Shown in pieces: positions 3,528 to 41,101 of a DNA stretch of 41,101 nt (position 1 is its first letter; each line of letters opens with the position of its first letter). This stretch comes from Candidatus Sigynarchaeum calidifontis (lineage in GTDB: Archaea > Asgardarchaeota > Lokiarchaeia > Sigyniarchaeales > Sigyniarchaeaceae), in assembly GCA_030587475.2 (NCBI GenBank), contig JAUQYZ020000111.1, forward strand, positions 1 to 41,101. Direction: 5' to 3'. Under the pieces are notes generated by a model that did no database searches, was not told where the DNA came from, and worked only from the letters and a program-made list of their open reading frames with translations. The translations under genes were made by a program, and so were the position numbers.

Positions 3528-4694
3528 ATGAAGCAAACCATGCCACTCTCAGCGAAAACACGGTACGCGATCCTGGGGCTGGTCTTGTGCATCGGTCTGG
3601 GCGGGTTCATCATCAACCAGATAGCCATCGAGGTGGAGATCCCCGGGATCGACCTGAACGTGAAGGATGCCCGCTTGTTCGCGGCCGATTACACGTCACG
3701 CTTCAAGCTCGAGAACGGCACGAGGGGCGCGAGCACGCAGTTAACGTTATCGACAAGGGTACTCAACCAGACTCACACGAACGTTTCGATCAACATTGAC
3801 GGGGTCACGAGCTGGTTCCTCGTCCATCCGAACGGGACGGTCTACCAGTACGGGGGCCAACTTCGTGGCAATTATAGCATCTGGTGGATCTACATTCCCA
3901 ACGTGTTAATGGGCTTCGGGGTGAAGGGCGGGGAAGAATACAACGTCGTGGATCCGACGGGCTTCCTCGGCATCACGGGCCACGCCTACTTGCTGGTCGT
4001 CGACCGGAAGCTGACCTACTGGCCATCCGACCCGGAGTTGATCGCCCTTTCCGGGGCGCAAGCAAGCATCGCGTGCAGCGTGTGGGACAAGGCGACCGGC
4101 CAGCTCGTGTCCCGGGCGACCATCGACATCACGTGCGGGATGATCGAGACGTGGGAGGGCGCGCAATCGTCGTACATCCGCATGACGCTGGTAACCACGG
4201 ATTTCCCCATCTCGCGCAACCGCCAGGTCGTGCTCGCGAGCGCGGTCATCTTGAGTTTTGTCGTGTTCATCATCGCGTTGTACCTGGTGCGAGTCCCGAA
4301 GAAAGCCAAGTCCATGGACCCGAAACAACGAGAACAGATCCTCGTGCTGGTGGGCTCCGGGGCTGGCGCCATCTTGATCGAGATCATCGACATCTGGTTT
4401 TACTTGTACCCGGGGAAACTCGGCATGTACCTCATCCACATCGCCTACACGGCCGTGGCCGGCCTTGCATGTGCACGGTACAAGATGGGATACAGGTGGC
4501 TCATCCCCTCGATTCTCGAAATCGCCTTTGTTTTCTCGCTGAGTACATTCACCGGGGACGCGATCGTCCCGTCGCTGACAGCCTTTATGGGGTCGACGAT
4601 CACCTGGCTCGGCATGATCTGGGCAATCGGCATCGTGAAGCACGTCAACGATGAAAGCCGTGGCATCAGGAAGATCTTGGCAGGTCTCGCATGA
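3528..4694 (+). CDS. Hypothetical membrane protein (N-terminal TM, extracellular beta domain, about 5 C-terminal TMs)
   Basis: ORF 3465-4694; ATG 3528 preferred because it lies downstream of TTTTTATG at ~3475; hydrophobicity pattern. Confidence 0.7.
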   Translation: MKQTMPLSAKTRYAILGLVLCIGLGGFIINQIAIEVEIPGIDLNVKDARLFAADYTSRFKLENGTRGASTQLTLSTRVLNQTHTNVSINIDGVTSWFLVHPNGTVYQYGGQLRGNYSIWWIYIPNVLMGFGVKGGEEYNVVDPTGFLGITGHAYLLVVDRKLTYWPSDPELIALSGAQASIACSVWDKATGQLVSRATIDITCGMIETWEGAQSSYIRMTLVTTDFPISRNRQVVLASAVILSFVVFIIALYLVRVPKKAKSMDPKQREQILVLVGSGAGAILIEIIDIWFYLYPGKLGMYLIHIAYTAVAGLACARYKMGYRWLIPSILEIAFVFSLSTFTGDAIVPSLTAFMGSTITWLGMIWAIGIVKHVNDESRGIRKILAGLA

Positions 4695-4886
4695 ACTTTC
4701 TTTCAACCTTTCGTGGATCATTTTTAAAAGGATATATGAAAAGTCAGGTCGAACGATTGTAATTTCGCGACCCGTACATGCCGGTATATGGGCACGTGCT
4801 GGTATCGTGCCGCCGCTTCCCGTGCGCGTGTTCAGAAATTCCGTGGTGCGTCACGGTTCAAGAAGCATGAACACGACACGAGATGC

Positions 4887-6449
4887 ATGGTCGAGCAAGC
4901 CAGCTTCACGGCGAACGGGCACCAGCTCAAGGACATCGATCGCTCCATCGGAACCGTGATCTCGTACGGAAGCACCCCTGACATCTACAATTTCTACTTC
5001 GTCATCTCTAACTCGCTTGAAACCAGCAAGCATGCCAAGGTCGGGAAATACGTTTGTACGCTAGAAAATGGTGGCTTGGTTGTTGGTCAAATCGTCAATC
5101 TCATCAAGATCAACGAATATTTTCTCAATGCAAGCACCTTCAAGGAAGCACGCCCACAAGTGAGCTTCACCTCGATATTCCCGACCGACCAGTGGGAATA
5201 CGTGCTCGCCGAAGTCAATGTAATGGGCTATTATCCCAAGGCCACCGATTTTCAAGGTTTTAATGGCACGGTCGAAAAATCCATCACTCCTGTCAGTCCT
5301 GGCAGTACCGTGCAGGCCATGGATCATTCCTTGCTCGGCAAGTTTCTCGGCTTCAACCTGTCAGCTGGCCTGCACCTCGGCATTATGGACGTGGATGGCC
5401 TCCCCGTCAAGATCGATCTGGCCAAGCTGTTCCAGAAACACCTCGCCATTCTGGCCATGTCCGGCGCGGGCAAGTCTTACCTCGTTAGCGTGCTCTTGGA
5501 GGAAATGATCAAGTCCCGGGGGCCGATGCCCCCGGTCATCATCGTCGACACGCACGGGGAATACACGGCAATGTTCAACGCATCGAACGTGAATGCCAAG
5601 TTTCCTCGTGCACGGATCGAAATCGTTGGCGGCTCGTTCATACAGGTGGGCACGTCGTTCCTGAGCGGCAGTTCTTTCTTCAATTACATGCCGAGCATGA
5701 GCCCAGTTCAAGGCCGGGATCTCCTGCGCGTCTTCAACGAGCTCAAGCAGGCCAAGAAACGGTTCGACTTGCGAGATCTCATCTCGGCATTGCAAGCAGA
5801 TGGCAAGCTCGGGAAAAAGACCAAGGACGCGCTGGAGGGCTGGCTCTACCAGCTGGACCAGTACGGAATGTTCTCCACGACCGAACATCCCCGCGTCGAC
5901 GAGATCTTGAAGCCTGGGACCATTGTCGTGTTGGACCTCAGCGGCCTCACGAGTGCCAAGCAAAAGCAAATCATCGTGGATTACATTGCCTCCAGGGCAT
6001 TTTACTTGCGAAAGAACCGGGTCATCCCGCCGTTCGTCTTGGTCATCGAGGAAGCTCACCAGTTCGTACCACAAGCCGCTGCTGAACACGCGGTCGCGCG
6101 TCACACGATCGAGACCATCGCTCGCGAGGGCCGTAAGTTCTTTGCTTCCTTGTGCTTGATCTCCCAGCGTCCGGTCAACTTGAACACGACTGTCTTGTCT
6201 CAATGCAACACGCAGATCATTCTCCGCGTTTCAAACCCGTATGATCTCGATCACATACGGTCTTCCTCGGAAAAAATCACGCCGGAAGCCCTCAAGATGA
6301 TTTCCTCTCTGCCCGTTGGCAGCGCCATCATCGTCGGTAGTGCCGTGAACACGCCCGTGTTTTTCAAGGTACGGCCCCGTGAGTTCCTTGTTGACGGGAA
6401 GCAAGGTGGCCTCATTGACGAGCTCGCTGCCTTCATCCCGCAGAAATGA
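4887..6449 (+). CDS. herA: HerA-family DNA helicase/translocase ATPase (HAS-barrel plus FtsK/HerA ATPase)
   Basis: HLAILAMSGAGKS (Walker A), IIVDTHGEY, VIEEAHQF (Walker B), AREGRKF, ISQRP, LSQCNT: canonical archaeal HerA motifs. Start at 4887 is inferred (ORF opens at 4788). Confidence 0.9.
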   Translation: MVEQASFTANGHQLKDIDRSIGTVISYGSTPDIYNFYFVISNSLETSKHAKVGKYVCTLENGGLVVGQIVNLIKINEYFLNASTFKEARPQVSFTSIFPTDQWEYVLAEVNVMGYYPKATDFQGFNGTVEKSITPVSPGSTVQAMDHSLLGKFLGFNLSAGLHLGIMDVDGLPVKIDLAKLFQKHLAILAMSGAGKSYLVSVLLEEMIKSRGPMPPVIIVDTHGEYTAMFNASNVNAKFPRARIEIVGGSFIQVGTSFLSGSSFFNYMPSMSPVQGRDLLRVFNELKQAKKRFDLRDLISALQADGKLGKKTKDALEGWLYQLDQYGMFSTTEHPRVDEILKPGTIVVLDLSGLTSAKQKQIIVDYIASRAFYLRKNRVIPPFVLVIEEAHQFVPQAAAEHAVARHTIETIAREGRKFFASLCLISQRPVNLNTTVLSQCNTQIILRVSNPYDLDHIRSSSEKITPEALKMISSLPVGSAIIVGSAVNTPVFFKVRPREFLVDGKQGGLIDELAAFIPQK

Positions 6450-6532
6450 GGTCATGAGCTAAACACCAACGAAGATTTTATATCGCATTATTTGCACCAG
6501 GTTCTCTGTCGCAATGCCGCGGGTTCTTGGCG

Positions 6533-9436
6533 ATGAAAACCTCATCCTACACTCTCAAGGAGAAGCTGAACAAGTTCTATGAAGAAGGCAAGTTCGGAGA
6601 GGTGATGGGGGAATTACGCCATTACTTGGGCACCCTCGCGAAGCACACGCGATCGCCACTTGTCATTGAATTACTTGACATGTTCAAGATGACCGTCGAC
6701 AAGGACATCGAGAACATTGACAAGAACCTTGAAGTCCTCGAAACATTGTTCAACACGCCTGGATTGGACGTGCAAGTCGAAATCCTCGCTATATTCTCGC
6801 GCCTGGCCACCATCCCTTCCATAAAGCAAGGCCTTTTCGACAGGTACTTCAACGAGGTCCAGACGCGCTTCGGGGCGATGTCCACCAGCGCGCGATCGCT
6901 CATCATCGAGATCCTCGAAAACATGTCGAGGGGCATGCCGGCGCTCCAGAGCTCCACCATCAAGTTCCTGCTCGCGCATCTCGATAGCGTCGAACCCGAG
7001 GTGTTGTTGGACATTCTCGCGGTTTTTTCGAGGATCCTCGCGGATGCACCGGAGAACGAGACTATTTTCGAGGTACACGGCCAATTGTTACTCGACAGGT
7101 TCGCGTTCGAGTCTGATAGTGGAATCGAAACAGCGTTCGTTGAATTGTTCATGCATCTGCCTCGTTGCAAGGACACGATCTTGGACACGAGCTTGCACTG
7201 GTTGCAATCCAAGGATTATCACTTGAAACAAAAAGCCCTCAAGATCATCCCCGCGATCATGGAAAGCCGCGTGGAAATGCTTTGCATCTCGACGCTCCTC
7301 GAAAACTTGAAGGACAAGAATATTGAGTTTCAATCGAGCGTGGTCGACACCCTGGCCGCGATAATGGCACGAAACACATCGTATTACACCACGCGTGCGA
7401 TCAGGTACTTCCTCAAGCGTGACATGGTAGAAAGCGAGATGCTTGGCTTCGTGGAACTGATGACCGCGCTCGCAGGCAAGGATTTCGAACCCGTGTTTTC
7501 CAAAGTGTTCGATTGCATGACTGTTACTGGATATGTCGCCGATCCTGTCACGATCGCCATTATTAAAAGTCTTAATGAGGAATATCCTCGCCAGCTCGAC
7601 GCTGCCATCTTCAAGACAATCGAATCGTTCGGCTCGATGCGCACGGGGGTGAAACTTGCCATCCTCGATAAGGTCGCGGCGATAACGAGCGGCTTGAAAA
7701 GCGAGATCATCACCGTCTGGTTCGCAAAATACTTGATCAAACTCGCCAATGAAAACGAAGGCAACGAGATTTCCCGCAAAGCAATGACTATAATCGAGCA
7801 TATCCGGCAGTATGAAAAAGAACTCGACCAAAAAATAAACAAGATCAACGAACACATCAAGAATGTCGAACTTAATATCTCGACAATGAAGAACTATCCA
7901 CGATTGCTGCGCGAGCGAGCGCCTATCTTCACGGAAACCGGGGATCCTTCCAGCGCAGCGCGGATGCTCGATGCCGAGTACCACTCGATGCTCCAGCGGA
8001 TCATCGATTTTGATAATTTCATCAATTCCCTGGAATTTAAACACCTGATCATGGATCTGGTCGACGAATGGTGCCAGGCAAAGGATTACATTCTCGATGA
8101 CTTGAATACCGTGAAAGAATACATATCGAGCCAGATCGACTCGTTTTTCAAAGAAAAACAAGCCGATGCAGCGGCCATCATACGCAACTTGACCAACAAA
8201 AAAGAGGTTGTCCTCGCCGAGTTCGATGACTTGCGGTCACAAATATCACGCATCGATACCCTAGATCATGATCAAGTAGGCGCGATCACCGGCAAAATCA
8301 CGCAATTCACGACGAACTTGCTACTCTTCGACCTGGAGGCTAGCAAGATGCTAATCGAGCAGCCCGTGTCCATGGAGGGCTATCAAACCTTCATCGATTC
8401 GTGGGCGAAGGCAAAGGAGTGCATAGAACGGGAACTCGACGGCGGAATCGCAGCCATCGATCGCTGGATCGAGAAGAGCCTGCACGGCAACGTACAAGAT
8501 CCTGGAAGCGCGGAACGCACCATGGCGATGCACAAGTTCTTTTCTAGTTTCATCCGTTCTTCAATACAAGACTTCCGTGCCATCTTGGACGAGCTTCAAT
8601 CGAAGAACGAGCAAATAACAAGCGATCTATCCTCTAAAAAGTTCGAGGACATCGAGAAAGCCATCAACTTCAAGAAAAGCAAGTTGCTCGATCTCATCGA
8701 GAACAAGGCATTCCTCATCGAGAAGTACTGGCGTGCGCTCAACCAGGCATCGCACGACATCGAGTTTCTCGTGGGCATAAACCGGCTGAAGGAGGAATGG
8801 TCGACCACGAAGGAAAACATCGTGGAAAAGATCCAACGCCATTATCATGCCCAGCTGGAACGCATCGATGCGGAGAAAATAAAACAAATGCTCTACATCG
8901 TGCATCCTATCCCTATCGGTTCGCTGAAAGGCAAACTCAGGTCAATTCCACACGAAGACGATGTCAAGTTCATCGCTGGGGTCATTGACATCGTGCAAAA
9001 GCATCAGATCAACGCGCTCGTCCAGAACAACATGCTTGTTAACATGCATGACTTTATCGACCCCGACGTGTCCGGCGTACCCGTGAGAATCAAGTCGAGT
9101 TTCTTTCCTCGCGATGCGGTGATGACGTTGAAAGTCACGGTGGAAAACAAATCGATCCACGAGATCTACGACGTCGTCGCGTCGCTCCATTTGCCACCGT
9201 TCCTCGTCTTGAGTGGAAAAAGCGGCTCGGATCACCGGAAAAAGATTCCTGCAATAGAATGCGGGAAAAATGCCGTCTTTACCTGGGATCTTGAAGATAA
9301 CAAGGTCAAGGATCCTGATGCAGCCGATGTTTCAGTTCAATTATCGAAGATCAGTATCATCATTGGCGGGAAATTGCCTGGGGAGAGATTCTTCAGCAAA
9401 AAGGAAGACGTGAGCATCATCTTCAAGCGTACATGA
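6533..9436 (+). CDS. Large alpha-solenoid (HEAT-like)/coiled-coil protein with a winged-helix-like segment and a C-terminal beta-sandwich
   Basis: ~970-aa ORF. Amphipathic helical repeats at about aa 1-430 (e.g. LQSKDYHLKQKALKII, LKDKNIEFQSSVVDTL), heptad-rich middle, beta-strand pattern at the C-terminus (TLKVTVENKS...IPAIECGKNAVFTWDL). TTTTATAT box at ~6476. Confidence 0.75.
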   Translation: MKTSSYTLKEKLNKFYEEGKFGEVMGELRHYLGTLAKHTRSPLVIELLDMFKMTVDKDIENIDKNLEVLETLFNTPGLDVQVEILAIFSRLATIPSIKQGLFDRYFNEVQTRFGAMSTSARSLIIEILENMSRGMPALQSSTIKFLLAHLDSVEPEVLLDILAVFSRILADAPENETIFEVHGQLLLDRFAFESDSGIETAFVELFMHLPRCKDTILDTSLHWLQSKDYHLKQKALKIIPAIMESRVEMLCISTLLENLKDKNIEFQSSVVDTLAAIMARNTSYYTTRAIRYFLKRDMVESEMLGFVELMTALAGKDFEPVFSKVFDCMTVTGYVADPVTIAIIKSLNEEYPRQLDAAIFKTIESFGSMRTGVKLAILDKVAAITSGLKSEIITVWFAKYLIKLANENEGNEISRKAMTIIEHIRQYEKELDQKINKINEHIKNVELNISTMKNYPRLLRERAPIFTETGDPSSAARMLDAEYHSMLQRIIDFDNFINSLEFKHLIMDLVDEWCQAKDYILDDLNTVKEYISSQIDSFFKEKQADAAAIIRNLTNKKEVVLAEFDDLRSQISRIDTLDHDQVGAITGKITQFTTNLLLFDLEASKMLIEQPVSMEGYQTFIDSWAKAKECIERELDGGIAAIDRWIEKSLHGNVQDPGSAERTMAMHKFFSSFIRSSIQDFRAILDELQSKNEQITSDLSSKKFEDIEKAINFKKSKLLDLIENKAFLIEKYWRALNQASHDIEFLVGINRLKEEWSTTKENIVEKIQRHYHAQLERIDAEKIKQMLYIVHPIPIGSLKGKLRSIPHEDDVKFIAGVIDIVQKHQINALVQNNMLVNMHDFIDPDVSGVPVRIKSSFFPRDAVMTLKVTVENKSIHEIYDVVASLHLPPFLVLSGKSGSDHRKKIPAIECGKNAVFTWDLEDNKVKDPDAADVSVQLSKISIIIGGKLPGERFFSKKEDVSIIFKRT

Positions 9437-26924: not shown

Positions 26925-27437
26925 ATGGCCAAGGAGGATATCCACGTGATCATCACGGGTTCCCGGAATGCAGGTATAAGTTCATTTATCAACCAGAAAG
27001 CGGGTGATTACGAGACCCACGAGGAATCCGGGATAGGCATCGACATCCAGTCCACGTCGGTATACGTCAACAAGGAAGAATATAACATCATATTCTACGA
27101 GATAGCCAGCACGTTCCCGCTCGAATCGCTGAAGAAGATATTCCAGAAAAAAAACGTGGGCCTCGCTGTCATGTTCGACTTGAGCAACCCCGTCTCCCTC
27201 GAGTTTGCCGAGCTTATCTACAATCAAATAGCCGAGAAGATCGGCACCAGGATGCCGAAGACCAAGTTCCTTCTCGGTTCGCACCTGGATCTCCCGAGAG
27301 CCGTTCCCTCAGAGTCGATCGACGCGTTGATGGAAACGATGGGGGGCAAGACCTACTACCTGGAGTTTTCCGCGAAAACGGGAGAGCGACTCTACGAGAG
27401 CCTGGAACAGATTGCAATAAAGATTCTAGAGAAATAG
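26925..27437 (+). CDS. Ras/Rab-superfamily small GTPase-fold protein with degenerate nucleotide motifs
   Basis: 170 aa. G1-like IITGSRNAGISS, GIDI switch I, G3-like FYEIAS, VMFDLSNPVSLE, G4-like LGSHLD, intact G5 EFSAKTG. Confidence 0.8.
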   Translation: MAKEDIHVIITGSRNAGISSFINQKAGDYETHEESGIGIDIQSTSVYVNKEEYNIIFYEIASTFPLESLKKIFQKKNVGLAVMFDLSNPVSLEFAELIYNQIAEKIGTRMPKTKFLLGSHLDLPRAVPSESIDALMETMGGKTYYLEFSAKTGERLYESLEQIAIKILEK

Positions 27438-32487: not shown

Positions 32488-32642
32488 CTAAAGAATAGGT
32501 GCTCTATTAAAAAAAGCATCTAGATGCTTGTCGAAGCGTGAATGGACATCCCGCCATAAAGACAGCTGGAGCAATCTCGATTTATCGCTTTTTTCACCAG
32601 CCAGGTGAAGATTTAAATATCCCATTCCCGCTTTCTCGATCC

Positions 32643-33371
32643 ATGGTTGCCGAGGCCGATTTGCCAATCTTTTTCATCGAGTTGGGCACCATCATGCTCG
32701 ATTTCACCCTTGGGCTCGTCCTGCTCTTTAAAACGATAAAGCTCGCACCAAGCCCGCCCCGGCGGTATTACAAGGGGGTCGTGTTCTTCTTTTTCACTCA
32801 TTCCGTTTGCAGAACCGTGTTCTTCGTCCGGGGATATTTCATCGAAAAGACCAATAATGCTACACGCGTCCCGATGTTCGACATCGGGACGATCCTCGGT
32901 TTGTTGAGCGTGTTATTCCTGGTTTTCGTGATTGAAACCACGATCGTGACCCAGACGCGAAAGATCTTCACGATCATGGGATTTTGTGCCCTGGGTATCA
33001 TGGTGCTGGACTTTTTCATACGATTGACGGTCAACGGTCGCCGATTGCTGCTCACGGTTCAGAACATCGCGATACCCATCCTCGCGGCTTTCATCATCGC
33101 TGTCTACTTGAGGGCGCTGTTGAAATCCACTGGACGGGTGAGAACGAACGCGATGGTCATGTTGATCGCGATCGTGCTATTGGCCCTTTCCGAGCTTGCA
33201 AACTCCGACATCGCCGGCAATTTGCTCGGGAGGGACCTGGCCAGATATCTCGGCCCATCGGTGATGGCGGCAGCGCTCATCTTGCTCTACTATGCCGTCA
33301 CCAACCTCTCTATATGGAAAAAAGAGAAGATATCGGAGAACGAGCCAGCACCATCAAACCCGCGTGAATGA
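32643..33371 (+). CDS. Seven-TM membrane protein without an output domain
   Basis: Seven hydrophobic segments in ~240 aa; ATG 32643 follows an ATTTAAAT box at 32611. Confidence 0.75.
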   Translation: MVAEADLPIFFIELGTIMLDFTLGLVLLFKTIKLAPSPPRRYYKGVVFFFFTHSVCRTVFFVRGYFIEKTNNATRVPMFDIGTILGLLSVLFLVFVIETTIVTQTRKIFTIMGFCALGIMVLDFFIRLTVNGRRLLLTVQNIAIPILAAFIIAVYLRALLKSTGRVRTNAMVMLIAIVLLALSELANSDIAGNLLGRDLARYLGPSVMAAALILLYYAVTNLSIWKKEKISENEPAPSNPRE

Positions 33372-33547
33372 ACCGAGGATTGTCCTGATCCGTCGCTTCA
33401 TCCCGGTTTTTTTTGGCAGCCCGGGCTCGACGTGCTCCCGGCACGCGTGCGCGTTCAAGATATCGTGCAAGGCGCTCGCCTTCGCTTTCCGAATGACGTC
33501 ATTTATGATGGAAAGGAATAATAGTTGTGATATACACCGGTATATCA

Positions 33548-34069
33548 ATGGACAAGATTATCCCTCTTCGAATTGACGAAGCAATCGTCACGCGGCTCGA
33601 TATCCTCGTTGCTCGCGGGATATTCCGCAACAGGAACGAAGCTTTACGGCAAGGAACCCGTGACATGATCGAAAAATTTCAAAATAACATGCACGAACGG
33701 CGCATGGTTGCAAGTAAAATCATCGCGAATTATCTGGTTACAAAGTATTCCCACCTCGTTTCCCGTGTCCTGTTATTCGGTTCCGTCGCAAAACACGAGG
33801 ACGCGGAATGGAGCGATGTCGATCTGCTGATACTGACGCGGAAACGACTGGGTTACATCATCGAGCGGGAGATCACGTTTGATATCTATGATTTGCTCGA
33901 GGGCACAGAATTGGTCATGTCGCCGCATTTTCAAGCAGAATCCACGTTCCTGGAACGTTCACGCGTTCCAAACACGATCGAGGCAATAATAATGAAAGAA
34001 GGACTTGTCCTGGCAGATAATATGCCGAACAAGCAAAACGTGCATGGCAAGAGGAAGGTGGACGAGTAA
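33548..34069 (+). CDS. Ribbon-helix-helix plus minimal nucleotidyltransferase (MNT) antitoxin
   Basis: IIPLRID...LVARGIFRNRNEALR (RHH); VLLFGSVAK...SDVDLLIL (Pol-beta NTase GS/DxD motif). Confidence 0.85.
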   Translation: MDKIIPLRIDEAIVTRLDILVARGIFRNRNEALRQGTRDMIEKFQNNMHERRMVASKIIANYLVTKYSHLVSRVLLFGSVAKHEDAEWSDVDLLILTRKRLGYIIEREITFDIYDLLEGTELVMSPHFQAESTFLERSRVPNTIEAIIMKEGLVLADNMPNKQNVHGKRKVDE

Positions 34070-34071
34070 TC

Positions 34072-34503
34072 GTGGCTAGATCTCGATCACCGCGGTTTGC
34101 GAAAGCATGGGAAAAGCATGACAGCGCCGTCCTGCTTTTTAATAAAGGGTTTCTTGACGATGCCATTTCCCGCGCATACCATGCCGTGTTCCACGGCATC
34201 GCCGTGCTCTTGCGGGACAAGAACGTGAAACTGGACGTTCACAAGCACGCGTACATCTTGACCCAGTTCCAGAAAGAATTCATCGAGCCCGGGTTGATCC
34301 AGCGAGATACCTTCAAGAAAGTCATTGCCATCAAGAGTCGACGCGAGGCTGCCGATTATTCGCTCGAATCGGAAACAAATGCCGAAGATGTCGAGCACAT
34401 CATCTCGGACGCGCGGTCATGCCTGGAGGAGTTTGAAGCATGTATCGCGAGCCATGCCAAGCCTGCATCGAAACAACCAGGAAAACCAAGCAGCAAGCCC
34501 TGA
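34072..34503 (+). CDS. HEPN-domain protein (DUF86/UPF0332-like), partner of the MNT
   Basis: AISRAYHAVFH, KHAYIL..F...FI, RREAADY; starts 2 bp after the MNT stop. Confidence 0.85.
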   Translation: MARSRSPRFAKAWEKHDSAVLLFNKGFLDDAISRAYHAVFHGIAVLLRDKNVKLDVHKHAYILTQFQKEFIEPGLIQRDTFKKVIAIKSRREAADYSLESETNAEDVEHIISDARSCLEEFEACIASHAKPASKQPGKPSSKP

Positions 34504-34551
34504 ATGCCGGCGAGACGCGCCTTGGATCGATACACGAACGACGGGATCGGC

Positions 34552-34604
34552 GGCAGGTCCAAGGCGGCGTTGCGGAAGCGCATCAAGGTGCCGGGCGGTT
34601 GATC
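34552..34604 (+). repeat. Degenerate copy of the 3' end of the UPF0175-like gene (partner at 35534-35586; shorter trace at 36512-36536)
   Basis: 46/53 ungapped identities by manual alignment; shared core ATCAAGGTGC. Confidence 0.85.
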
Positions 34605-34667
34605 CTGGCATGGTCATCATGTCTATTGACGTCGAGTAGATCGAGCTGATCATCGATTTTTTAGCTT

Positions 34668-35147
34668 TCATGATTTGTTGATCACTTCAAGCAAGTGTTT
34701 TTTCGAATGCTCGTCGATATTCTTCCATTCCCGGAGGGCTTTGACGACACGGTTTCCATCATTCTTCCGGATCATTCCATTTTCCACGAGCCAGAGCGCG
34801 TATTCCGAGATTTTAAAAGCTTTCACGTGAAAGAAATGTAGTATGTCCATTTCTGCTCCATCGTCACATATAACGACCGCGTTCTCTTCCGCCCGTGCTA
34901 GTGCTATGATCGAAAGATCAGCATCATCGAGGGTCTTATCGGTCAAGTCTTGATATGTTTGCAATTTGACGGGACGAATGGTAAACTTGCTGAGATCCAG
35001 ATAATCTGCCAGATAATGCTTGTATTCCTTCACGAGCTCGTGGGTGGCGTGAAGATCGCTCTCGTAAAAGAAATCCTTCAAATAAATTATCCCTTCCTTC
35101 TCGAGTCTCTCTATCTTATGCCATGAGCACGTGTCGATGACATGCAT
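34668..35147 (-). CDS. PIN-domain (VapC/DUF3368-like) ribonuclease
   Basis: HVIDT, ELVKE, LDDADLSIIALA, VICDD acidic PIN motifs. Confidence 0.8.
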   Translation of the reverse strand: MHVIDTCSWHKIERLEKEGIIYLKDFFYESDLHATHELVKEYKHYLADYLDLSKFTIRPVKLQTYQDLTDKTLDDADLSIIALARAEENAVVICDDGAEMDILHFFHVKAFKISEYALWLVENGMIRKNDGNRVVKALREWKNIDEHSKKHLLEVINKS

Positions 35148-35203
35148 GCTAGCAGTATTCCATAAGAATATATAAATAACTTGCTCGCAATTGCTAGAAT
35201 AAC

Positions 35204-35584
35204 GTGATGCGGATGAAGCAGATCAATTTCAGGGTTTCCGAGGAAGAGTACCAATTTGCCGTGAATATCGCGAAGCTCCTGGGAAAATCGGTTCCCGTGC
35301 TCGTGAAAGAACTCGGGATGAAGGGATTACGCGAAGCGAGCACGAATCTCGCCTTGGATTTGTACAAGAACGACAAGATTGGCTTGAAACAAGCCTGGCA
35401 GATGACCGGCCTTTCGTTTCACGAGTTTACCGGGCTCTTGATGGCTCGCGGGATCGAGCCACCAACGAATATCGCACGGTTCAATCGCTCGCTCGATTCC
35501 ATGCGGTCGGTTCGCTTTGAAGACCTGTTTCCTGGCATGTCCAAGGAGCAGTTGCGGCAGCTCATCAAGGTGCCGGGCGATTGA
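35204..35584 (+). CDS. UPF0175-like antitoxin with an N-terminal RHH-like segment
   Basis: KQINFRVSEEE; ALDLYKNDKIGLKQAWQMTGLSFHEFTGLLMARGI matches the UPF0175 HTH pattern. Confidence 0.8.
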   Translation: MMRMKQINFRVSEEEYQFAVNIAKLLGKSVPVLVKELGMKGLREASTNLALDLYKNDKIGLKQAWQMTGLSFHEFTGLLMARGIEPPTNIARFNRSLDSMRSVRFEDLFPGMSKEQLRQLIKVPGD

Positions 35585-35639
35585 TCTCGATTTCACGATT
35601 CCTTTTGTTTATGCTCAGTCATGTTCGCGCATCCCTTGA

Positions 35640-35804
35640 ACCAAGAAATACTGTCGAGACAGGGATTAACTAGTTTTCCATGTCTCCTCAGCGATCTTTT
35701 TACATGTACAAGGCTAAAAAAGACAAAAACTCTCTCGCGATTAGCCACGCCTTTTCGTGATAGCAAGTCGTGAAAGGGAAACTTGCACGAGTCCGGTGAC
35801 GTGA
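35640..35804 (+). repeat. Heavily decayed copy of the promoter/5' UTR of the gene at 37902
   Basis: Conserved blocks at conserved spacing versus 37755-37898: TGTCGAGAC-28nt-CAGCGA..TTTTTA.ATGT; TTCGTGAT-14nt-GGGAAA; TGCACGA-3nt-CGGTGACGTGA. Confidence 0.7.
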
Positions 35805-35878
35805 TTTTAGGATCATTAAGGTATTTAAGCTGACATTTGTATGGTGTCCTCACCTAAAAAGAAAAAACGTGATAGATA

Positions 35879-36511
35879 TTGGCCTTGCTTCTTAAATATC
35901 CCAAGGATTTTCTCATCGAAGGAGAATATGTCGTGTTAAAACCTGACGTGTCAGAAGAGGAATTCTGGGCTATTTCAGACGAGGATAGTAATTTTGAACT
36001 AATAGACGGGGTGCTGATCATTCACTCGCCAGCATCTGAAGAGCACGAGGACATTTTTCGATATTTACAAACGATTCTAACCCTTTTTCTCGAAAAAACT
36101 AAACAAGGAAAGATTTATGGTTCTAGATTCGTGATGCGGTTATCAAAGAAATGGAATCCCGAGCCGGATCTCATCATCATTCAACCTGAAAATTATAAAA
36201 ACATCAAATACAATTATTTTGAAGGGCCCGCTGACATTGCAATCGAAATCCTTTCAAAAGCTACTAAGGAAATCGATTTGCAGAAGAAAATACCGAAATA
36301 CTTGGAGGTGGGAGTAAAAGAGGTCTGGGTCATGGACCCCGAAGATAAGAAGATTTCCATTCGCTCCCCGAACCAGGTCATCGAATATACCGATCCAAAT
36401 TCCGACCGGAAGATCGAGTCCGGGATCTTGAAAGGCTTGCCCATCGAGATAAGGTGGATCTGGAACCGTGAAAAACACCCTATAATCGAAGTCGTGAAAA
36501 ATATTCTCTAA
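35879..36511 (+). CDS. Uma2 (DUF820) family PD-(D/E)xK endonuclease
   Basis: FELIDGVL..SPASEEHE, PEPDL, PADIAIEILS, KIPKYLEVGVKEVWVMDP; visibly more AT-rich than the core genes. Confidence 0.9.
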   Translation: MALLLKYPKDFLIEGEYVVLKPDVSEEEFWAISDEDSNFELIDGVLIIHSPASEEHEDIFRYLQTILTLFLEKTKQGKIYGSRFVMRLSKKWNPEPDLIIIQPENYKNIKYNYFEGPADIAIEILSKATKEIDLQKKIPKYLEVGVKEVWVMDPEDKKISIRSPNQVIEYTDPNSDRKIESGILKGLPIEIRWIWNREKHPIIEVVKNIL

Positions 36512-36610
36512 GCGGCGTTATGCGTGATCAAGGTGCGAGCCGTGGCCGATCGAGGCCATGCCATGTAGCAAGGAAACCTCTGTTCGGTTCCCTAGCAGGG
36601 AGCGTCCGAC

Positions 36611-36799
36611 GCATCCCCGCCGAATTCTTCCATGTCCAGAGCCAATGAAATGCACGATAATTCGTGTTCGCGTGCTTTTACCGGGAAATACGCGCACGAA
36701 GTCGATGACGTGAACCCTGCCATGCGGACTCTTCATTCTCGGTTATCGGATCGACCTTGACGCCGAGAAGATCGAGCCGAAGGCCGTCGCCGAATCGAA
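36611..36799 (+). repeat. Degenerate direct repeat of 37796-37984 (promoter, 5' UTR and first ~27 codons of the gene at 37902)
   Basis: Ungapped at offset 1185; 36661-36799 vs 37846-37984 gives about 123/139 identities. ATG is changed to CTG (36717) and the TATA-like TTTTTATAT to TTCTTCCAT. Confidence 0.92.
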
Positions 36800-36856
36800 T
36801 GGAATCAGATCGACATCGATTATTATAAATATCATGATAATCATGGTCATCATGAA

Positions 36857-37123
36857 ATGGCAACGACGATCCAGATCTCGGACGCGGTACAAAAACGCCT
36901 CTTCATGCTCAAGAACCAGAAGGAAAAGGAATTTGGGCGCCGGCTTACCTACAACGACGTGATCGAGCTTCTCCTTGAAAACCAAATCGCTCGCGTTGAA
37001 AAAGATGAGTTCATTAAACATGTAGAGAAATACCAAGGTATCATCGATTATAAAGATGCAAAAAAGGCACGAAACGAGGAGAGGCAATTAGAACGTGAAC
37101 GGGAACGCGCGCGCCAGCACTAA
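36857..37123 (+). CDS. Putative VapB-like antitoxin (RHH/HTH type)
   Basis: TTIQISDAVQKRL..LK......TYNDVIELLL pattern typical of archaeal antitoxins; overlaps the PIN gene. Confidence 0.75.
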   Translation: MATTIQISDAVQKRLFMLKNQKEKEFGRRLTYNDVIELLLENQIARVEKDEFIKHVEKYQGIIDYKDAKKARNEERQLERERERARQH

Positions 37124-37538
37124 TTCCGCTGTCCTTGACACGAGCGTGTTGCTGGAAATCCTCGGGAACACCCGGTTGGGTGAAACCATCAAGAACGTGG
37201 TTCTCAAGGATCCTGCAATGGAGCGATTCTATATCAGCCCCATCGCTGTCACGGAGCTTCTATATCTCGTCGCCAGGACAGTGGATTTTCAAGTGGCGCG
37301 GCAGCGAGTGGAAGGATTCACGAGGGTGTTCACGATTTGCGACGAGAAAGAGCTCCGGATCGAAGCAGCCAGGATAAAATCTATCTTGGCACTTTCTCTC
37401 GCCGATTGCTATGCACTCGCCATCGGTAGCTTGCAAGGCATTCCCGTTTACTTCAAGCGAGAATCGGAATTCGACGCGATATTGAAAAAAGGGCCGATCC
37501 CCCTTCCAATTGACCTGCGATTCGTTGATGATTTGTAA
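37095..37538 (+). CDS. VapC-like PIN-domain toxin
   Basis: AVLDTSVLLE, ISPIAVTELLY, AARIK....LSLADCYALA. Confidence 0.88.
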   Translation: MNGNARASTNSAVLDTSVLLEILGNTRLGETIKNVVLKDPAMERFYISPIAVTELLYLVARTVDFQVARQRVEGFTRVFTICDEKELRIEAARIKSILALSLADCYALAIGSLQGIPVYFKRESEFDAILKKGPIPLPIDLRFVDDL

Positions 37539-37901
37539 CTTGATGCGTATCGGTTCAGTTACTCCACGAAATTTTGACACGTTCATTTCGACGCGAACCA
37601 GGAGACGTTTTTCGTCGCGACGGCACTGGAGAAGATCGTCGCGGATCTCGCCAAGAAAATCTTGAACACGTGAGCAATGAAATGATGGACATCCAGATTG
37701 TCGCTTGTGGGGGTGTGTTCCCTTCTGGCCATCCCTCGTCGTAGATCGCGAATAACAAGGGAATATGTCGAGACTCGTGATGGTTCTGCTCCCGCGCATC
37801 CCCAGCGAATTTTTATATGTCGAGCCGCAATGTTGAAAACAACTGTTCGTGATCACGTGCTGTTGTCGGGAAATACGTGCACGAAGTCGGTGACGTGAAC
37901 C

Positions 37902-39173
37902 ATGCCATACGGACTCATCATTCTCAGTTATCGGATCGACCTTGACGCCGAGGAGATCGAGCCGAAGTTCGTCGTCGAGTCGAAAGAAAACATGGAGGAG
38001 GACATCGACGTCGAAAAGATGTTCTCGCTCGACGACCGGTTCCGCGTGTACTACGCACACACGGCGGGTGAATCGGGGGTGACAGGCGGTACGGGCGCGG
38101 GATACTACACGGGGCGCCTTCGGGACTCCCGGTGCTCGATCATCTCGTATTATTCGGGGTTAGCGAAGGATTCCAAGAAGCCAGAATACTTGATCTGCGC
38201 ACTCATCCAACCGGACGAGTCATTCGACATCTTCAAGGACATCATGGAGGAATACCGGAACGAAGCCATCCGGCTGCTCGATAAACTCGGTGACAACGAT
38301 GACAAGCTCGTCGGCACGAAACTCTGGAAAGAAGTGCACGACAAGCTCGATTCAACGCTGAAATACGTGCTGTTCCAGATGAGCAGGCTCGTGAACCTCA
38401 ACAACGAGCAGAAAATCGCCATGATCTTCAACTCGCTCGAACGCATCGCCATCTTGCGAAAGCTGGCGCAGGGGCCGATCGCCAAGGAGAAGCTGCGGGA
38501 ATTTATGGAGCAAACGGCGCTCACGCTGTACCCGAACATGGAATTGCTGCTCAAGCCATTCGTCGCGTGCGACCTGATTCGCCAGGACTGGTCGAAGGGC
38601 GAGAAAGACGCCAAGACAGGGCGCATCAAGGGGCGAGGCGAGTACATCTATCTCGTGAAGGATATTTCGCTCATCCGGGTGCCGCCCGAGGAGATGCTCA
38701 AGAAGGTCAAGGAGAAAAAACCGCCATTCGACGACAAGGAGTTCACGAAGGCGTACTTGTCGGCGATTCAAGAATTCTTCTACAAGTACAACCCGCTGGA
38801 CGACCTGGATTATAAAGATAGCGGGGACCTCGCCAAGATTCTCCTGGATCCCGACACCTACGACTTCTTGGTCTTGCTGCGATTCCGATCTTATCCAAAG
38901 AAGAAAGTACCTAAAGTCGGCTACGGCGAGACTAACATCATCCTTAAGAAGCTCGTCGACTTGAACATCGTCACGGTCATCAAGGACAAGAAGGACGAGG
39001 ACTGGGTGCTGCTTTTGAGCGATCCCCATGCTTTCATGCTCTTCCCTGAATATTTACTGGAGAATATCCGCCAGCGCCTCGACCCGCAGGCCGTCGACCC
39101 GATTCTCAAGCAGGTCGCCCTCCAGCACCTCAACTACCTCGAAGGCACGTACTACGAGAAGCGCGAATTCTAA
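37902..39173 (+). CDS. Conserved-looking 423-aa protein with a putative longin/uDENN-like N-terminus and tandem winged-helix-like C-terminus
   Basis: Strong core-gene codon bias; beta-beta-helix-beta-beta-helix N-terminus (SIISYY...YLICALIQPDE..DIFKDIM); two wHTH-like segments (ERIAILRKLAQGPIAKEKL...; ILKKLVDLNIVTVI); intact TTTTTATAT box at ~37810. Confidence 0.75.
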   Translation: MPYGLIILSYRIDLDAEEIEPKFVVESKENMEEDIDVEKMFSLDDRFRVYYAHTAGESGVTGGTGAGYYTGRLRDSRCSIISYYSGLAKDSKKPEYLICALIQPDESFDIFKDIMEEYRNEAIRLLDKLGDNDDKLVGTKLWKEVHDKLDSTLKYVLFQMSRLVNLNNEQKIAMIFNSLERIAILRKLAQGPIAKEKLREFMEQTALTLYPNMELLLKPFVACDLIRQDWSKGEKDAKTGRIKGRGEYIYLVKDISLIRVPPEEMLKKVKEKKPPFDDKEFTKAYLSAIQEFFYKYNPLDDLDYKDSGDLAKILLDPDTYDFLVLLRFRSYPKKKVPKVGYGETNIILKKLVDLNIVTVIKDKKDEDWVLLLSDPHAFMLFPEYLLENIRQRLDPQAVDPILKQVALQHLNYLEGTYYEKREF

Positions 39174-39265
39174 ACCCTTCTCCCGATTCTTTCTATCTTC
39201 TCCATTTTTCACGATCCGGCACGCACGTCCAGTATCGCCTCGTCGCCGCGCCCGGCAGCACGGTC

Positions 39266-40099
39266 TTGGGCCACCCGGATTATGACGTGAAGGATCGCAT
39301 TTCAGCAAATTACGACGTCGAGTACCGCATCAGCCGCCCCGCCACGCCCGAACCGGCCGTCCCCGCTGGCCAGCCCATCCCTGCGAACCTCATCGAGCGC
39401 CAGGGCACGTGCTTCTACCGCTTCCACCGCGATGCCTTGAGCCATGCCGACGCCATGAAAGTCATCGATAATTTCATCGATAACATCATCGTTCATCCCG
39501 GCGCGCAGGTGCAGGCCCCATCACCCCCGAGTTCTGCCTCTTCAATTCACGAGCTTGACAATCTCCGACTCGGAACCGACAAGTACAGCGTCCTGAAATA
39601 CATCGCCAAGTTGGCCAAGTTGGGATTCGCCGTGACGAGCAGTGAAGTGAGCCTCAAGTTCGGGAGGACGTCCGTGTACACGACCCCCCTCCTCGAAAAT
39701 CTGATGAGAATTTTCGGCGTCGTCCAGCAGACGCGAGCGCAGCTGGTGAAATTCCCGGTCAGCACCAGGGCAAAGACGACCGGGGAAGGCCTTTTCTGGA
39801 CGCTCGCATCGATCAACGGCGCACCCATCACGAGGGCGCAATTCGACTCGATGATCGCCCAGCACAACGCGTTGCGGCAGGCGTGCCTGGATCTCGCCCA
39901 GAAACTGGACGTCATCACGCGCTTGGGCCAAATGCTCGGCGAGATCGAGTGGGCGGTAAAACACCCGAAAGCGGGTCGGCCGGCCACGATCAGGAGCATG
40001 ATCCTCAAGCTTAAAGCACAATTCGCGCAATCCATGTTCGATTACTTGATGACGGTCCGGCCCGACTGGTTGAACCCGAACCCCACGTGGCATCCATGA
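39266..40099 (+). CDS. Hypothetical protein with a possible winged-HTH; start uncertain
   Basis: 277-aa ORF; KYSVLKYI....VTSSEVSLKFGRTSVYTTPLLENL...GVV is wHTH-like. Confidence 0.6.
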   Translation: MGHPDYDVKDRISANYDVEYRISRPATPEPAVPAGQPIPANLIERQGTCFYRFHRDALSHADAMKVIDNFIDNIIVHPGAQVQAPSPPSSASSIHELDNLRLGTDKYSVLKYIAKLAKLGFAVTSSEVSLKFGRTSVYTTPLLENLMRIFGVVQQTRAQLVKFPVSTRAKTTGEGLFWTLASINGAPITRAQFDSMIAQHNALRQACLDLAQKLDVITRLGQMLGEIEWAVKHPKAGRPATIRSMILKLKAQFAQSMFDYLMTVRPDWLNPNPTWHP

Positions 40100-40251
40100 C
40101 AAGTCGGGATGGTCGAAAATCCCACGGAATTTCAATTTTTTTCTTGATATTTCTTGGAACATGCCCGTTACACGAGTTAACCACCGTCATGCCAGAAAAG
40201 TATATATGCTTGAACTTCCACCAAGTAACAAGAAGAATCGAGGCGAACCCG

Positions 40252-41101
40252 ATGGATCTGAAACCTATCTACTTTAAGAATAACGAATTTCCCATCAAGC
40301 AATCGGGTCGGTACCAATCCCTCTCCATCATCAACCAAGATATCGACCGCATCTCCGACATCGAAGGCCTCGACGAGCTCACGGGGCTCACCTCTCTCAA
40401 TCTCAGCACGAACAACATCAAGCGCATCGAAGGGCTTGAAAAACTCGTGAATCTCGAAGTCCTCAACCTTTCCGAAAACCAGATAACCAAGATCGAGGGC
40501 CTCGACTCGCTCGTTAATCTCAGACGATTAACTTTATACCGTAATAATCTCCGTCGCATCGAGGGCCTGATCAATAACAAAAATCTTGATTACCTCTTTT
40601 TAAACCGCAACCAGATCGAACGGATCGAGGGGCTAGACGGGTTGAGCAATCTCAAAGAGATTTTCTTATCGGGAAACCGGATCAGGGAGATTTCTGGCCT
40701 GGAAAGCCTGAAGAGGCTCGAAACGTTGCAGCTGCATGGTAACTTCATACGCAACATTGGCGGGCTCGATTCCCTTCACGGCTTGCGCAAGCTCGACCTC
40801 GGAGAGAACGTGATCGAAAGTATCAATGGACTTGAGAACTTGAAAAACCTGGTCGAGCTTCAACTGAACACGAATCGCATCCGTCGCATCGAGGGATTGG
40901 ATGCATTGGTGAACTTGGAATCCTTGTGGCTGTCCCGGAACTTCATCCAAGAGATCCGCGGGCTTGGCAATCTCGCCAAGCTCAAAGATCTCACCCTCGG
41001 AGACAATCCTCTACCCGAGGATCTAGTGAAGCACCTTGGCGGATTCTGCGCTGACCCTATGGCCAGAACCAACGTGGCCGACCCGCAAGCCTTCGACCGC
41101 T
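40252..41101 (+). CDS. SDS22-type leucine-rich repeat protein (truncated at the window edge; absent from the ORF track)
   Basis: Manual translation from ATG 40252: MDLKPIYF...IEGLDELTGLTSLNLSTNNIKRIEGLEKLVNLEVLNLSENQITKIEGL..., about 10 regular 22-aa LRRs ending LGDNPL; no stop before 41101. Confidence 0.92.
   Translation, partial: MDLKPIYFKNNEFPIKQSGRYQSLSIINQDIDRISDIEGLDELTGLTSLNLSTNNIKRIEGLEKLVNLEVLNLSENQITKIEGLDSLVNLRRLTLYRNNLRRIEGLINNKNLDYLFLNRNQIERIEGLDGLSNLKEIFLSGNRIREISGLESLKRLETLQLHGNFIRNIGGLDSLHGLRKLDLGENVIESINGLENLKNLVELQLNTNRIRRIEGLDALVNLESLWLSRNFIQEIRGLGNLAKLKDLTLGDNPLPEDLVKHLGGFCADPMARTNVADPQAFDR

Follow-up and report, generated by a model that had tools for sequence, protein, structure and literature searches.

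Gene X and its upstream cassettes

The window analysed here is a stretch of 41,101 nt from Candidatus Sigynarchaeum calidifontis (contig JAUQYZ020000111.1), an Asgard archaeon. It is contig C106 of a metagenome-assembled genome (MAG), called G000 below, which is assembled in short contigs to 5.0 Mb and is 89% complete with about 5% contamination. Gene X lies toward the right end of the window and encodes a protein of 423 residues. Four cassettes of toxin-antitoxin (TA) and nuclease genes are stacked upstream of it, and the separators between them are colinear copies of gene X itself, namely of its promoter and 5′ end (Table 1). The locus was compared with G001 (JAFGBX010000326.1), a MAG of the same genus in which contig L034 bears the X locus, and with a further independent assembly, Ga0315277_10483330.

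Table 1. Features of the X locus, in window coordinates; positions relative to X are counted from its ATG
Feature	Coordinates	Strand	Remarks
Membrane protein gene	32538..33371	+	Open reading frame (ORF) without Pfam match; distal to the array
Cassette 1, MNT and HEPN TA pair	33527..34503	+	MNT 33527-34069, HEPN 34072-34503
Decayed copy of the 3′ half of the UPF0175 antitoxin gene	34511..34604	+	Internal deletion of ~150 nt; from direct repeats
Copy D, X codons about 9-21	34612..34649	+	Core 34626-34649 matches copy B at 21/24 positions
Cassette 2, 159-residue ORF and UPF0175 antitoxin gene	34668..35584	ORF −, UPF0175 +	ORF 34668-35147, UPF0175 35204-35584; PF03683 for the antitoxin
Copy C, X upstream region −181 to −4	35601..35804	+	From alignment and shuffles
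Cassette 3, Uma2-family putative restriction endonuclease	35879..36511	+	PF05685, E 1.6e-27; low-GC segment, 42-43%
Copy A, X −112 to +91	36605..36807	+	ATG and TATA-like box mutated; from direct repeat and alignment
Cassette 4, VapB-like antitoxin and PIN toxin	36857..37538	+	VapB-like 36857-37123, PIN 37095-37538
Copy B, live promoter, 5′ untranslated region and first 30 codons of X	37721..37992	+	Homology to copy C from 37721, to copy A from 37790
Gene X, 423-residue protein	37902..39173	+	Conserved across the order
X 3′ terminal segment, last 39 codons and 43 nt	39057..39216	+	Recurs as orphan copies on C63, in G001 and on metagenome contig L060

Copy A is unambiguously a remnant of X. Nucleotides 36661–36807 match 37846–37992 of copy B at 87% over 147 nt, nucleotides 36605–36647 match 37790–37832 at 74% over 43 nt, and the spacing of both pairs of blocks is 1185 nt. 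In global alignment the region −112 to −1 is 79.8% identical and the coding part, +1 to +91, is 86.8% identical. The local alignment score is 215, while dinucleotide shuffles reach 19 ± 2. CTG stands in place of the ATG, and TTCTTCCAT in place of the TTTTTATAT box, in agreement with an earlier note on this DNA, which had given an identity of about 88% and the loss of both signals.

Copy C aligns with nt 37721–37898 and stops 3 nt short of the position of the ATG. Its identity to copy B is 76% over aligned pairs, or 62% when gaps are counted. The spaced blocks by which it had been recognized are found at identical spacing, and under each of three scoring schemes 0/300 shuffles equal its score (z about 7–11).

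The earlier count of 21 matches in 24 for copy D is correct. By itself the copy is marginal, its score being equalled by between 0 and 6 of 300 shuffles under the different scoring schemes. The copy sits 7–21 nt downstream of the decayed UPF0175 copy, whose two parts are 76% and 87% identical to the intact gene (genome-wide BLAST E 8e-9). The same order, a UPF0175 3′ end followed by an X 5′ region, recurs at nt 35534–35586 and copy C, and because of this colinearity copy D is credible as a remnant. The D unit shows internal deletions and, judged from its sequence, appears to be a deleted copy of an earlier arrangement of UPF0175, promoter and X start.

Alignments, shuffles and the UPF0175 colinearity together uphold the earlier identification of A, C and D as real remnants of the X promoter and 5′ end. 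Each of them flanks a different cassette distally. In G000 a search for one more remnant upstream of MNT-HEPN gave nothing above chance (score 12; shuffles 11 ± 2). Expressed in X coordinates, the junctions of the 5′ remnants differ: −4 for copy C, about +64 for copy D, about +84 for a remnant in G001, and about +91 to +107 for copy A.

The cargo

MNT and HEPN of cassette 1 belong to PF18765/PF01909 and PF05168, respectively. A copy of this pair with 74% identity is present in G001, where it is preceded by an X 5′ remnant. The 159-residue ORF of cassette 2, the presumed partner of UPF0175, has no match in Pfam, NCBIfam or PDB and is PIN-like by motif only; its single-sequence fold model is unusable, with a pLDDT (predicted local distance difference test) value of 38. 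The ORF and the UPF0175 gene have a homologue of 72% DNA identity at an unrelated locus of another relative, G003. The G003 homologues of this pair and of Uma2 are located at other loci without flanking repeats. In cassette 4 the PIN toxin matches PF01850 (E 2e-10) and the VapB-like antitoxin matches PF02697 weakly. G001 carries this cassette at the same position with 86% identity, and the homology begins at nt 36813, just past the end of copy A. The type II TA families represented in the cargo are MNT with HEPN and PIN with VapB-like, above or near the Pfam cut-offs, and UPF0175, above its cut-off. The families first assigned to MNT, HEPN, UPF0175, Uma2, the cassette 4 PIN and, weakly, its antitoxin hold, but the PIN label of the 159-residue ORF finds no family match.

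The four cassettes are unrelated to one another and none has a second copy in the genome; therefore they were not templated from elsewhere in it. Pfam searches revealed no transposase domain in the four cassettes, though transposase families were not searched across the window. An inverted-repeat scan, run without an attC covariance model, found no terminal inverted repeats and, where cassettes begin or end, no strong repeats able to form hairpins. No match to PF00589 (tyrosine recombinase) or PF00239 (serine recombinase) occurs on the window contig, in line with the reported lack of an integrase, and there is no recombinase nearby.

The anchor gene

Gene X is present in 41/41 genomes sampled from the order. 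No Pfam family covers the protein, and no toxin domain is found in it. The fold model (pLDDT 76) comprises a longin-like N-terminal domain, a helical region and two winged-helix domains. Foldseek matches the longin domains of FLCN and Lst4 and winged helix-turn-helix proteins of the ArsR type, all weakly (E >= 0.01). A hidden recombinase was considered for X and ruled out, as fold and searches give longin-like and winged helix-turn-helix similarity only, all of it weak.

The family of X is an Asgard one, and each genome has several paralogues. Across the order, identity is 35–40% for the best match in a genome and about 30% for the other paralogues. The orthologue in G003 (L012:1501-2763 / L036:10001-11260, JBGLND010000001.1) matches X over residues 1–339 only, after which about 80 residues of unrelated, GC-rich-looking sequence follow. 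The missing 3′ part was found neither within 10 kb nor elsewhere in G003. A frameshift or a replaced 3′ end could account for this unusual terminus.

Relatives and the order of the array

In G001 the order is 5′ remnant, MNT-HEPN, a weak trace of copy A, VapBC and X. The outermost and the innermost cassettes are thus common to G000 and G001, while everything from nt 34485 to 36812 is lacking in G001. Its MNT-HEPN bears a distal X remnant that G000 lacks. The region upstream of −112 in G001 gives no significant alignment with G000.

A coding block of 76 nt allows the remnants to be compared with live genes. The live X genes of G000, G001 and contig L057 are nearly identical to one another in this block (73–75/76). 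Copy A matches live X of G000 and G001 at 68/76 and 69/76, with 7–9 differences from the live genes. The G001 remnant matches the live genes of its own genus at 62/76, with 14–15 differences. Both are far from other lineages (40–56/76). The divergence from live X is 10% for copy A and 18% for the G001 remnant. Because the remnants have diverged while the live copies of the same genus stay nearly identical, the pattern fits stranding followed by neutral decay. On the same comparison the VapBC insertion would date to about the split between G000 and G001, which makes a deletion of the middle cassettes in G001 probable. Since deletions have taken place as well, the array follows the order of time only approximately. 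The clean chronicle of the CRISPR or integron kind that had been envisaged does not hold, given the middle cassettes absent from G001, its extra distal remnant and the deletions in the D unit.

Farther relatives show turnover of the cargo. Five of them keep the upstream genes g484 and/or g171 beside X (g171 only in G003), with 1.5–7.5 kb of different cargo between these genes and X, including a UPF0175-like gene, TPR proteins, MazE with PIN, a GH113 enzyme and acyltransferases. In these five, DNA similarity to the window begins exactly at the X ATG. As the earlier note had expected, the cargo upstream of X orthologues varies, and donor strains with other cargo beside X plausibly exist. No remnants of their own X termini were found in the fetched flanks of relatives with about 80% DNA identity (L056, L058, L059, L035, L036).

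Orphan copies of the X 3′ end

The 3′ end of X leaves remnant arrays of the same kind. On contig C63 of G000, X 3′ remnants lie at nt 3584–3617, 5276–5434, 6407–6472 and 7483–7597, at a spacing of roughly 1.1–1.7 kb. In G001 they are found downstream of X (L034 nt 12577–12736 and 13861–13956) and on C384 (nt 634–776), and one more is present on L060 (nt 1146–1246). These orphan copies are 86–100% identical to the live gene. On C63 the last two cassettes consist of a UPF0175-type pair and of an RHH/NikA-like antitoxin beside a 168-residue ORF.

The window ends inside a repetitive LRR gene. The C63 array very probably continues the window, because C63 nt 4218–5375 are syntenic with the stretch downstream of X in G001. 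G001 contains a unit of more than 300 nt, consisting of an LRR 3′ end and an X 3′ remnant, which is itself duplicated around a gene for 248 residues. Re-copying of a remnant together with its neighbours is therefore seen directly.

The LRR gene at the contig break occupies window nt 40087–41100 and has counterparts at C63 nt 1–1309, 3607–4077 and 5067–5127; its 3′ end is present three times on that contig. A deleted copy of the segment running from the X 3′ end to the LRR gene lies at C63 nt 3584–4077. Some of the orphan 3′ ends are unusually well preserved: C63 nt 5114–5392 and 6407–6472 and L034 nt 12577–12736 are 93–100% identical to X, one of them exactly over 66 nt. Some form the in-frame ends of short ORFs, such as one of 92 residues on C63. 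Such preservation may point to gene conversion by live X, or to a function that has been kept.

Duplicated gene termini elsewhere in the genome

The MAG was compared with itself for repeats of 40–300 nt with at least 80% identity, lying 0.5–6 kb apart. The repeat pairs comprise 34 direct and 0 inverted. Three of the direct pairs are internal protein repeats and one is an apparent assembly repeat; most of the others consist of the 5′ or 3′ terminus of an intact ORF and an orphan copy of it. Terminus duplication around inserted genes occurs in this way at about 20 other genes of G000, and the duplicated anchors are 43–248 nt long. Together with the 3′ arrays of X, these loci show that insertion is not special to the X start.

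The cargo between the repeats includes ParE, MazE with PIN, an RHH protein with a PIN-like partner, HepT and PIN. There are also three archaeal ATPases, two of the ATPase_2+DUF234 type and one AAA_14+DUF4143, as well as LRR, BNR and Ig-like proteins. A DDE transposase is present at only one of the repeat-flanked loci, C250. The repeats of different loci contain no common core or motif (best score 13, against 11 for shuffles). The whole MAG has two PF00589 matches, one on C86 and one at the end of C48, so neither on the window contig nor on C63, and it has no match to PF00239.

Two loci have an empty counterpart in G001. At C103, the last 107 nt of a gene for 610 residues are present once in G001, where G000 has repeat, 2.6 kb of cargo, and repeat. 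At C215, G001 has one repeat copy and no cargo, where G000 has repeat, ATPase gene, and repeat. Therefore, duplication is coupled to the arrival of cargo.

At C132:23183-27025 (L053 3184-7026), a direct repeat of 51 nt with 96% identity covers the 3′ end of tRNA-Leu(CAG) and brackets 3.7 kb encoding proteins of 840 and 351 residues without Pfam match. This looks like an integrative element without a recognisable integrase. C215 2534-3952, C131 805-2163 and C182 5569-6900 are single-gene insertions of archaeal ATPases with gene-end duplications of 190–250 nt, and the ATPase_2+DUF234 and AAA_14+DUF4143 families appear to move as solitary genes in G000.

How the array may have formed

We favour the explanation, at a probability of about one half, that the array was built by repeated additive insertions, each made by host homologous recombination at a gene terminus plus one illegitimate join, with no dedicated integrase. 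DNA would come in from a related strain that has a different cassette beside X and would pair with the recipient through the conserved gene terminus, which serves as the anchor. The other end would join illegitimately within the same terminus of the recipient. In an equivalent route, the incoming fragment would circularise and enter by a single crossover, giving the same product, namely the old truncated terminus, the new cassette, and a fresh terminus on an intact X. Repetition would move older cassettes and stranded termini outward, where they would decay by substitution and deletion, and the same process would operate at the X 3′ end and at many other genes of G000. As most of the cargo is TA, recombinants that keep the resident cassettes would survive better than those in which they are replaced, and this would lead to stacking. 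The duplications, their direct orientation and their coupling to cargo presence are observed, as are the turnover of cargo in relatives and the scarcity of recombinases; the recombination route itself we infer.

The earlier note had left two mechanisms side by side. Homology-anchored illegitimate recombination is the better fit, although unproven. A recombinase supplied in trans, with the gene start for its att site, or any one site-specific enzyme, is disfavoured because there is no common motif or core, recombinases are few (two tyrosine, no serine), the cassettes have no second copies, and the 5′ junctions vary.

Several points weigh against the favoured explanation. The main observation that the anchor model does not predict is that six X 3′ remnants in two MAGs start within nt 39051–39062. 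Such clustered left ends may reflect a preferred break site, or one ancestral remnant that was re-copied repeatedly with its neighbours. Likewise, the right ends of copy A and of the G001 5′ remnant fall within about 25 nt of each other, which could come from a preferred cutting site or from re-copying of one ancestral remnant. The anchors are short, where random fragment ends would predict longer ones. A recombinase could be unassembled in a MAG that is 89% complete, or could reside on an extrachromosomal element. We know of no demonstration of DNA uptake in Asgard archaea. Finally, bacterial measurements of recombination of this type show it to be rare (PMC5361080).

The clustered left ends are also an argument for site-specific integration with tandem accretion, in which small integrative or cis-mobilisable elements carry a gene terminus in attP and use a tyrosine recombinase that acts in trans or has since been lost. 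Integrases typically target gene termini and leave direct repeats, the tRNA-Leu 3′ end duplicated around 3.7 kb at C132 is a classical case, and the MAG is incomplete. Yet two PF00589 and zero PF00239 matches would have to serve about 20 different target sequences; the loci have no common core, the 5′ junctions are as scattered as listed above, and the cargo units of 1–3 kb contain no integrase fragment. We consider this route unlikely. It is more doubtful still that the repeats are long target-site duplications of an undescribed duplicative insertion, with foreign DNA caught between wide staggered nicks or between offset breaks on the sister chromosomes of a polyploid cell. No incoming homology would be needed, and C103 and C215, the cleanest loci, have two copies with the same boundaries on either side and a single copy at the empty sites in G001; all pairs are direct (34 to 0), and the cargo is diverse in type. 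However, we know of no prokaryotic mechanism that fits duplications of 50–250 nt, and copies C and A at the X locus do not agree in both boundaries. The duplications almost always take in a gene terminus beside strain-variable DNA, which is what the anchor model predicts.

Local segmental duplication followed by deletion and decay, without cassette import, may contribute single steps: the decayed UPF0175 remnant with copy D resembles a decayed duplicate of UPF0175 with copy C, and the deleted X-to-LRR copy on C63 is of the same kind. As the sole process it is largely refuted and has little probability, since tandem duplication would double the cargo too, whereas the four cassettes are mutually unrelated and single-copy. 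An assembly artefact joining strain variants is the least probable account, and we give it almost no weight. The MAG does consist of short contigs with some contamination, and its repeats, 77–98% identical, resemble strain variants. But like remnants occur in both independent assemblies, some at the same places, and decayed start codons and deletions are not what allelic variants would show. A de Bruijn assembler, moreover, would have no path from the cargo into a second copy of the gene end unless reads supported it.

A broader claim than the one favoured here can be made tentatively, and we think it possible rather than probable. Cassette addition at gene termini may be lineage-wide and independent of recombinases, or be carried out by an unrecognised enzyme, with 50–250 nt of target duplicated each time. 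It would leave a roughly time-ordered record on both sides of the anchors, and TA addiction would bias the outcome to stacking over replacement.

Comparison with known systems

The closest known kind is the terminal-displacement orphan array. For orphan arrays downstream of Rhs, contact-dependent inhibition (CDI) and type VI secretion system (T6SS) effector genes, "C-terminal displacement" is described by Kirchberger et al. 2017 (PMC5361080), with reference to Jackson et al. 2009 and to Poole et al. 2011. The proposed route is homology-facilitated illegitimate recombination, and selection would favour retention of old modules (PMC5361080). Like the X array, these are polar stacks of acquired modules beside a conserved anchor, without an integrase. 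In both, the older orphaned ends are displaced outward in direct orientation and retain a fragment of the anchor. In contrast, the anchor X is a longin/winged-helix protein and not a polymorphic toxin, and its cargo, self-contained TA pairs and a Uma2 nuclease, is unrelated to the function of the anchor. X also uses its 5′ end with the promoter as well as its 3′ end, the pattern extends to about 20 unrelated genes, and the host is an Asgard archaeon.

Integrative and conjugative elements (ICEs), integrative and mobilizable elements (IMEs) and cis-mobilisable elements accrete in tandem at gene 3′ ends or at tRNA/tmRNA genes, for example in the Dehalococcoides ssrA islands (PMC3146451; reviewed in PMC5704250). 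There too the elements are split by direct repeats that are partial ends of the target gene, and the gene stays intact. Their repeats are short att sites with a fixed core and an element-encoded recombinase, whereas neither enzyme, core nor fixed junction was found here. The clustered left ends of the 3′ remnants keep some room for accretion of this type.

Likeness to other systems is looser. The X cassettes differ from transposons and insertion sequences in having no transposase domain or terminal inverted repeats, and their flanking duplications are of 43–248 nt, not short. Integrons are TA-rich cassette arrays with the newest cassette next to a fixed site, and they have been reported also in archaeal MAGs. 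The X array is TA-rich as well and would have its newest cassette beside X, but it has no IntI gene, its separators are gene-derived and apparently not folded attC, and arrays stand on both sides of the anchor. The analogy to an integron or a CRISPR locus thus holds loosely. Bacterial recombination hotspots flanked by core genes undergo double-crossover turnover, which replaces the content and leaves no duplicated gene ends. The X locus resembles them in the variable accessory segment between g171 and X, the content of which is different in every relative, and is unlike them in bearing duplicated gene ends. Aloposons and other described Asgard mobile elements were considered and are unrelated, being tRNA-targeting with giant genes, or viruses and plasmids (PMC8813620, PMC11529989).

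If the favoured explanation is true, ordinary gene ends are the places where host recombination brings horizontally acquired defence and addiction genes into Asgard chromosomes, with a datable scar left each time. Orphan gene termini would then mark recent acquisitions in archaeal MAGs that have no recognisable mobile-element genes, and the acquisitions could be ordered in time. The locus would be a test case for TA addiction turning gene replacement into accretion. Terminal displacement, so far tied to bacterial polymorphic toxin loci, would then apply to ordinary genes as well, also at promoters and 5′ ends, and in archaea.

Neighbouring genes

The window contains no tRNA genes, and no Rfam families were found in 32.0–41.1 kb. 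The ORFs adjacent to the array are housekeeping genes or have no assigned function in Pfam. The C-terminal half of the membrane protein distal to the array is common to G000 and G001; tblastn against contig L034 gives 61% amino acid identity over residues 154–277, at a DNA identity of 70%. The neighbours farther upstream are ordinary chromosomal genes, among them purD and the genes for prephenate dehydrogenase, GcvH and a small Ras-type GTPase. The Ras-family gene, at window nt 26925–27437 (PF00071, E 5e-13), adjoins the gene for a TPR/RPN7-like protein of 638 residues.

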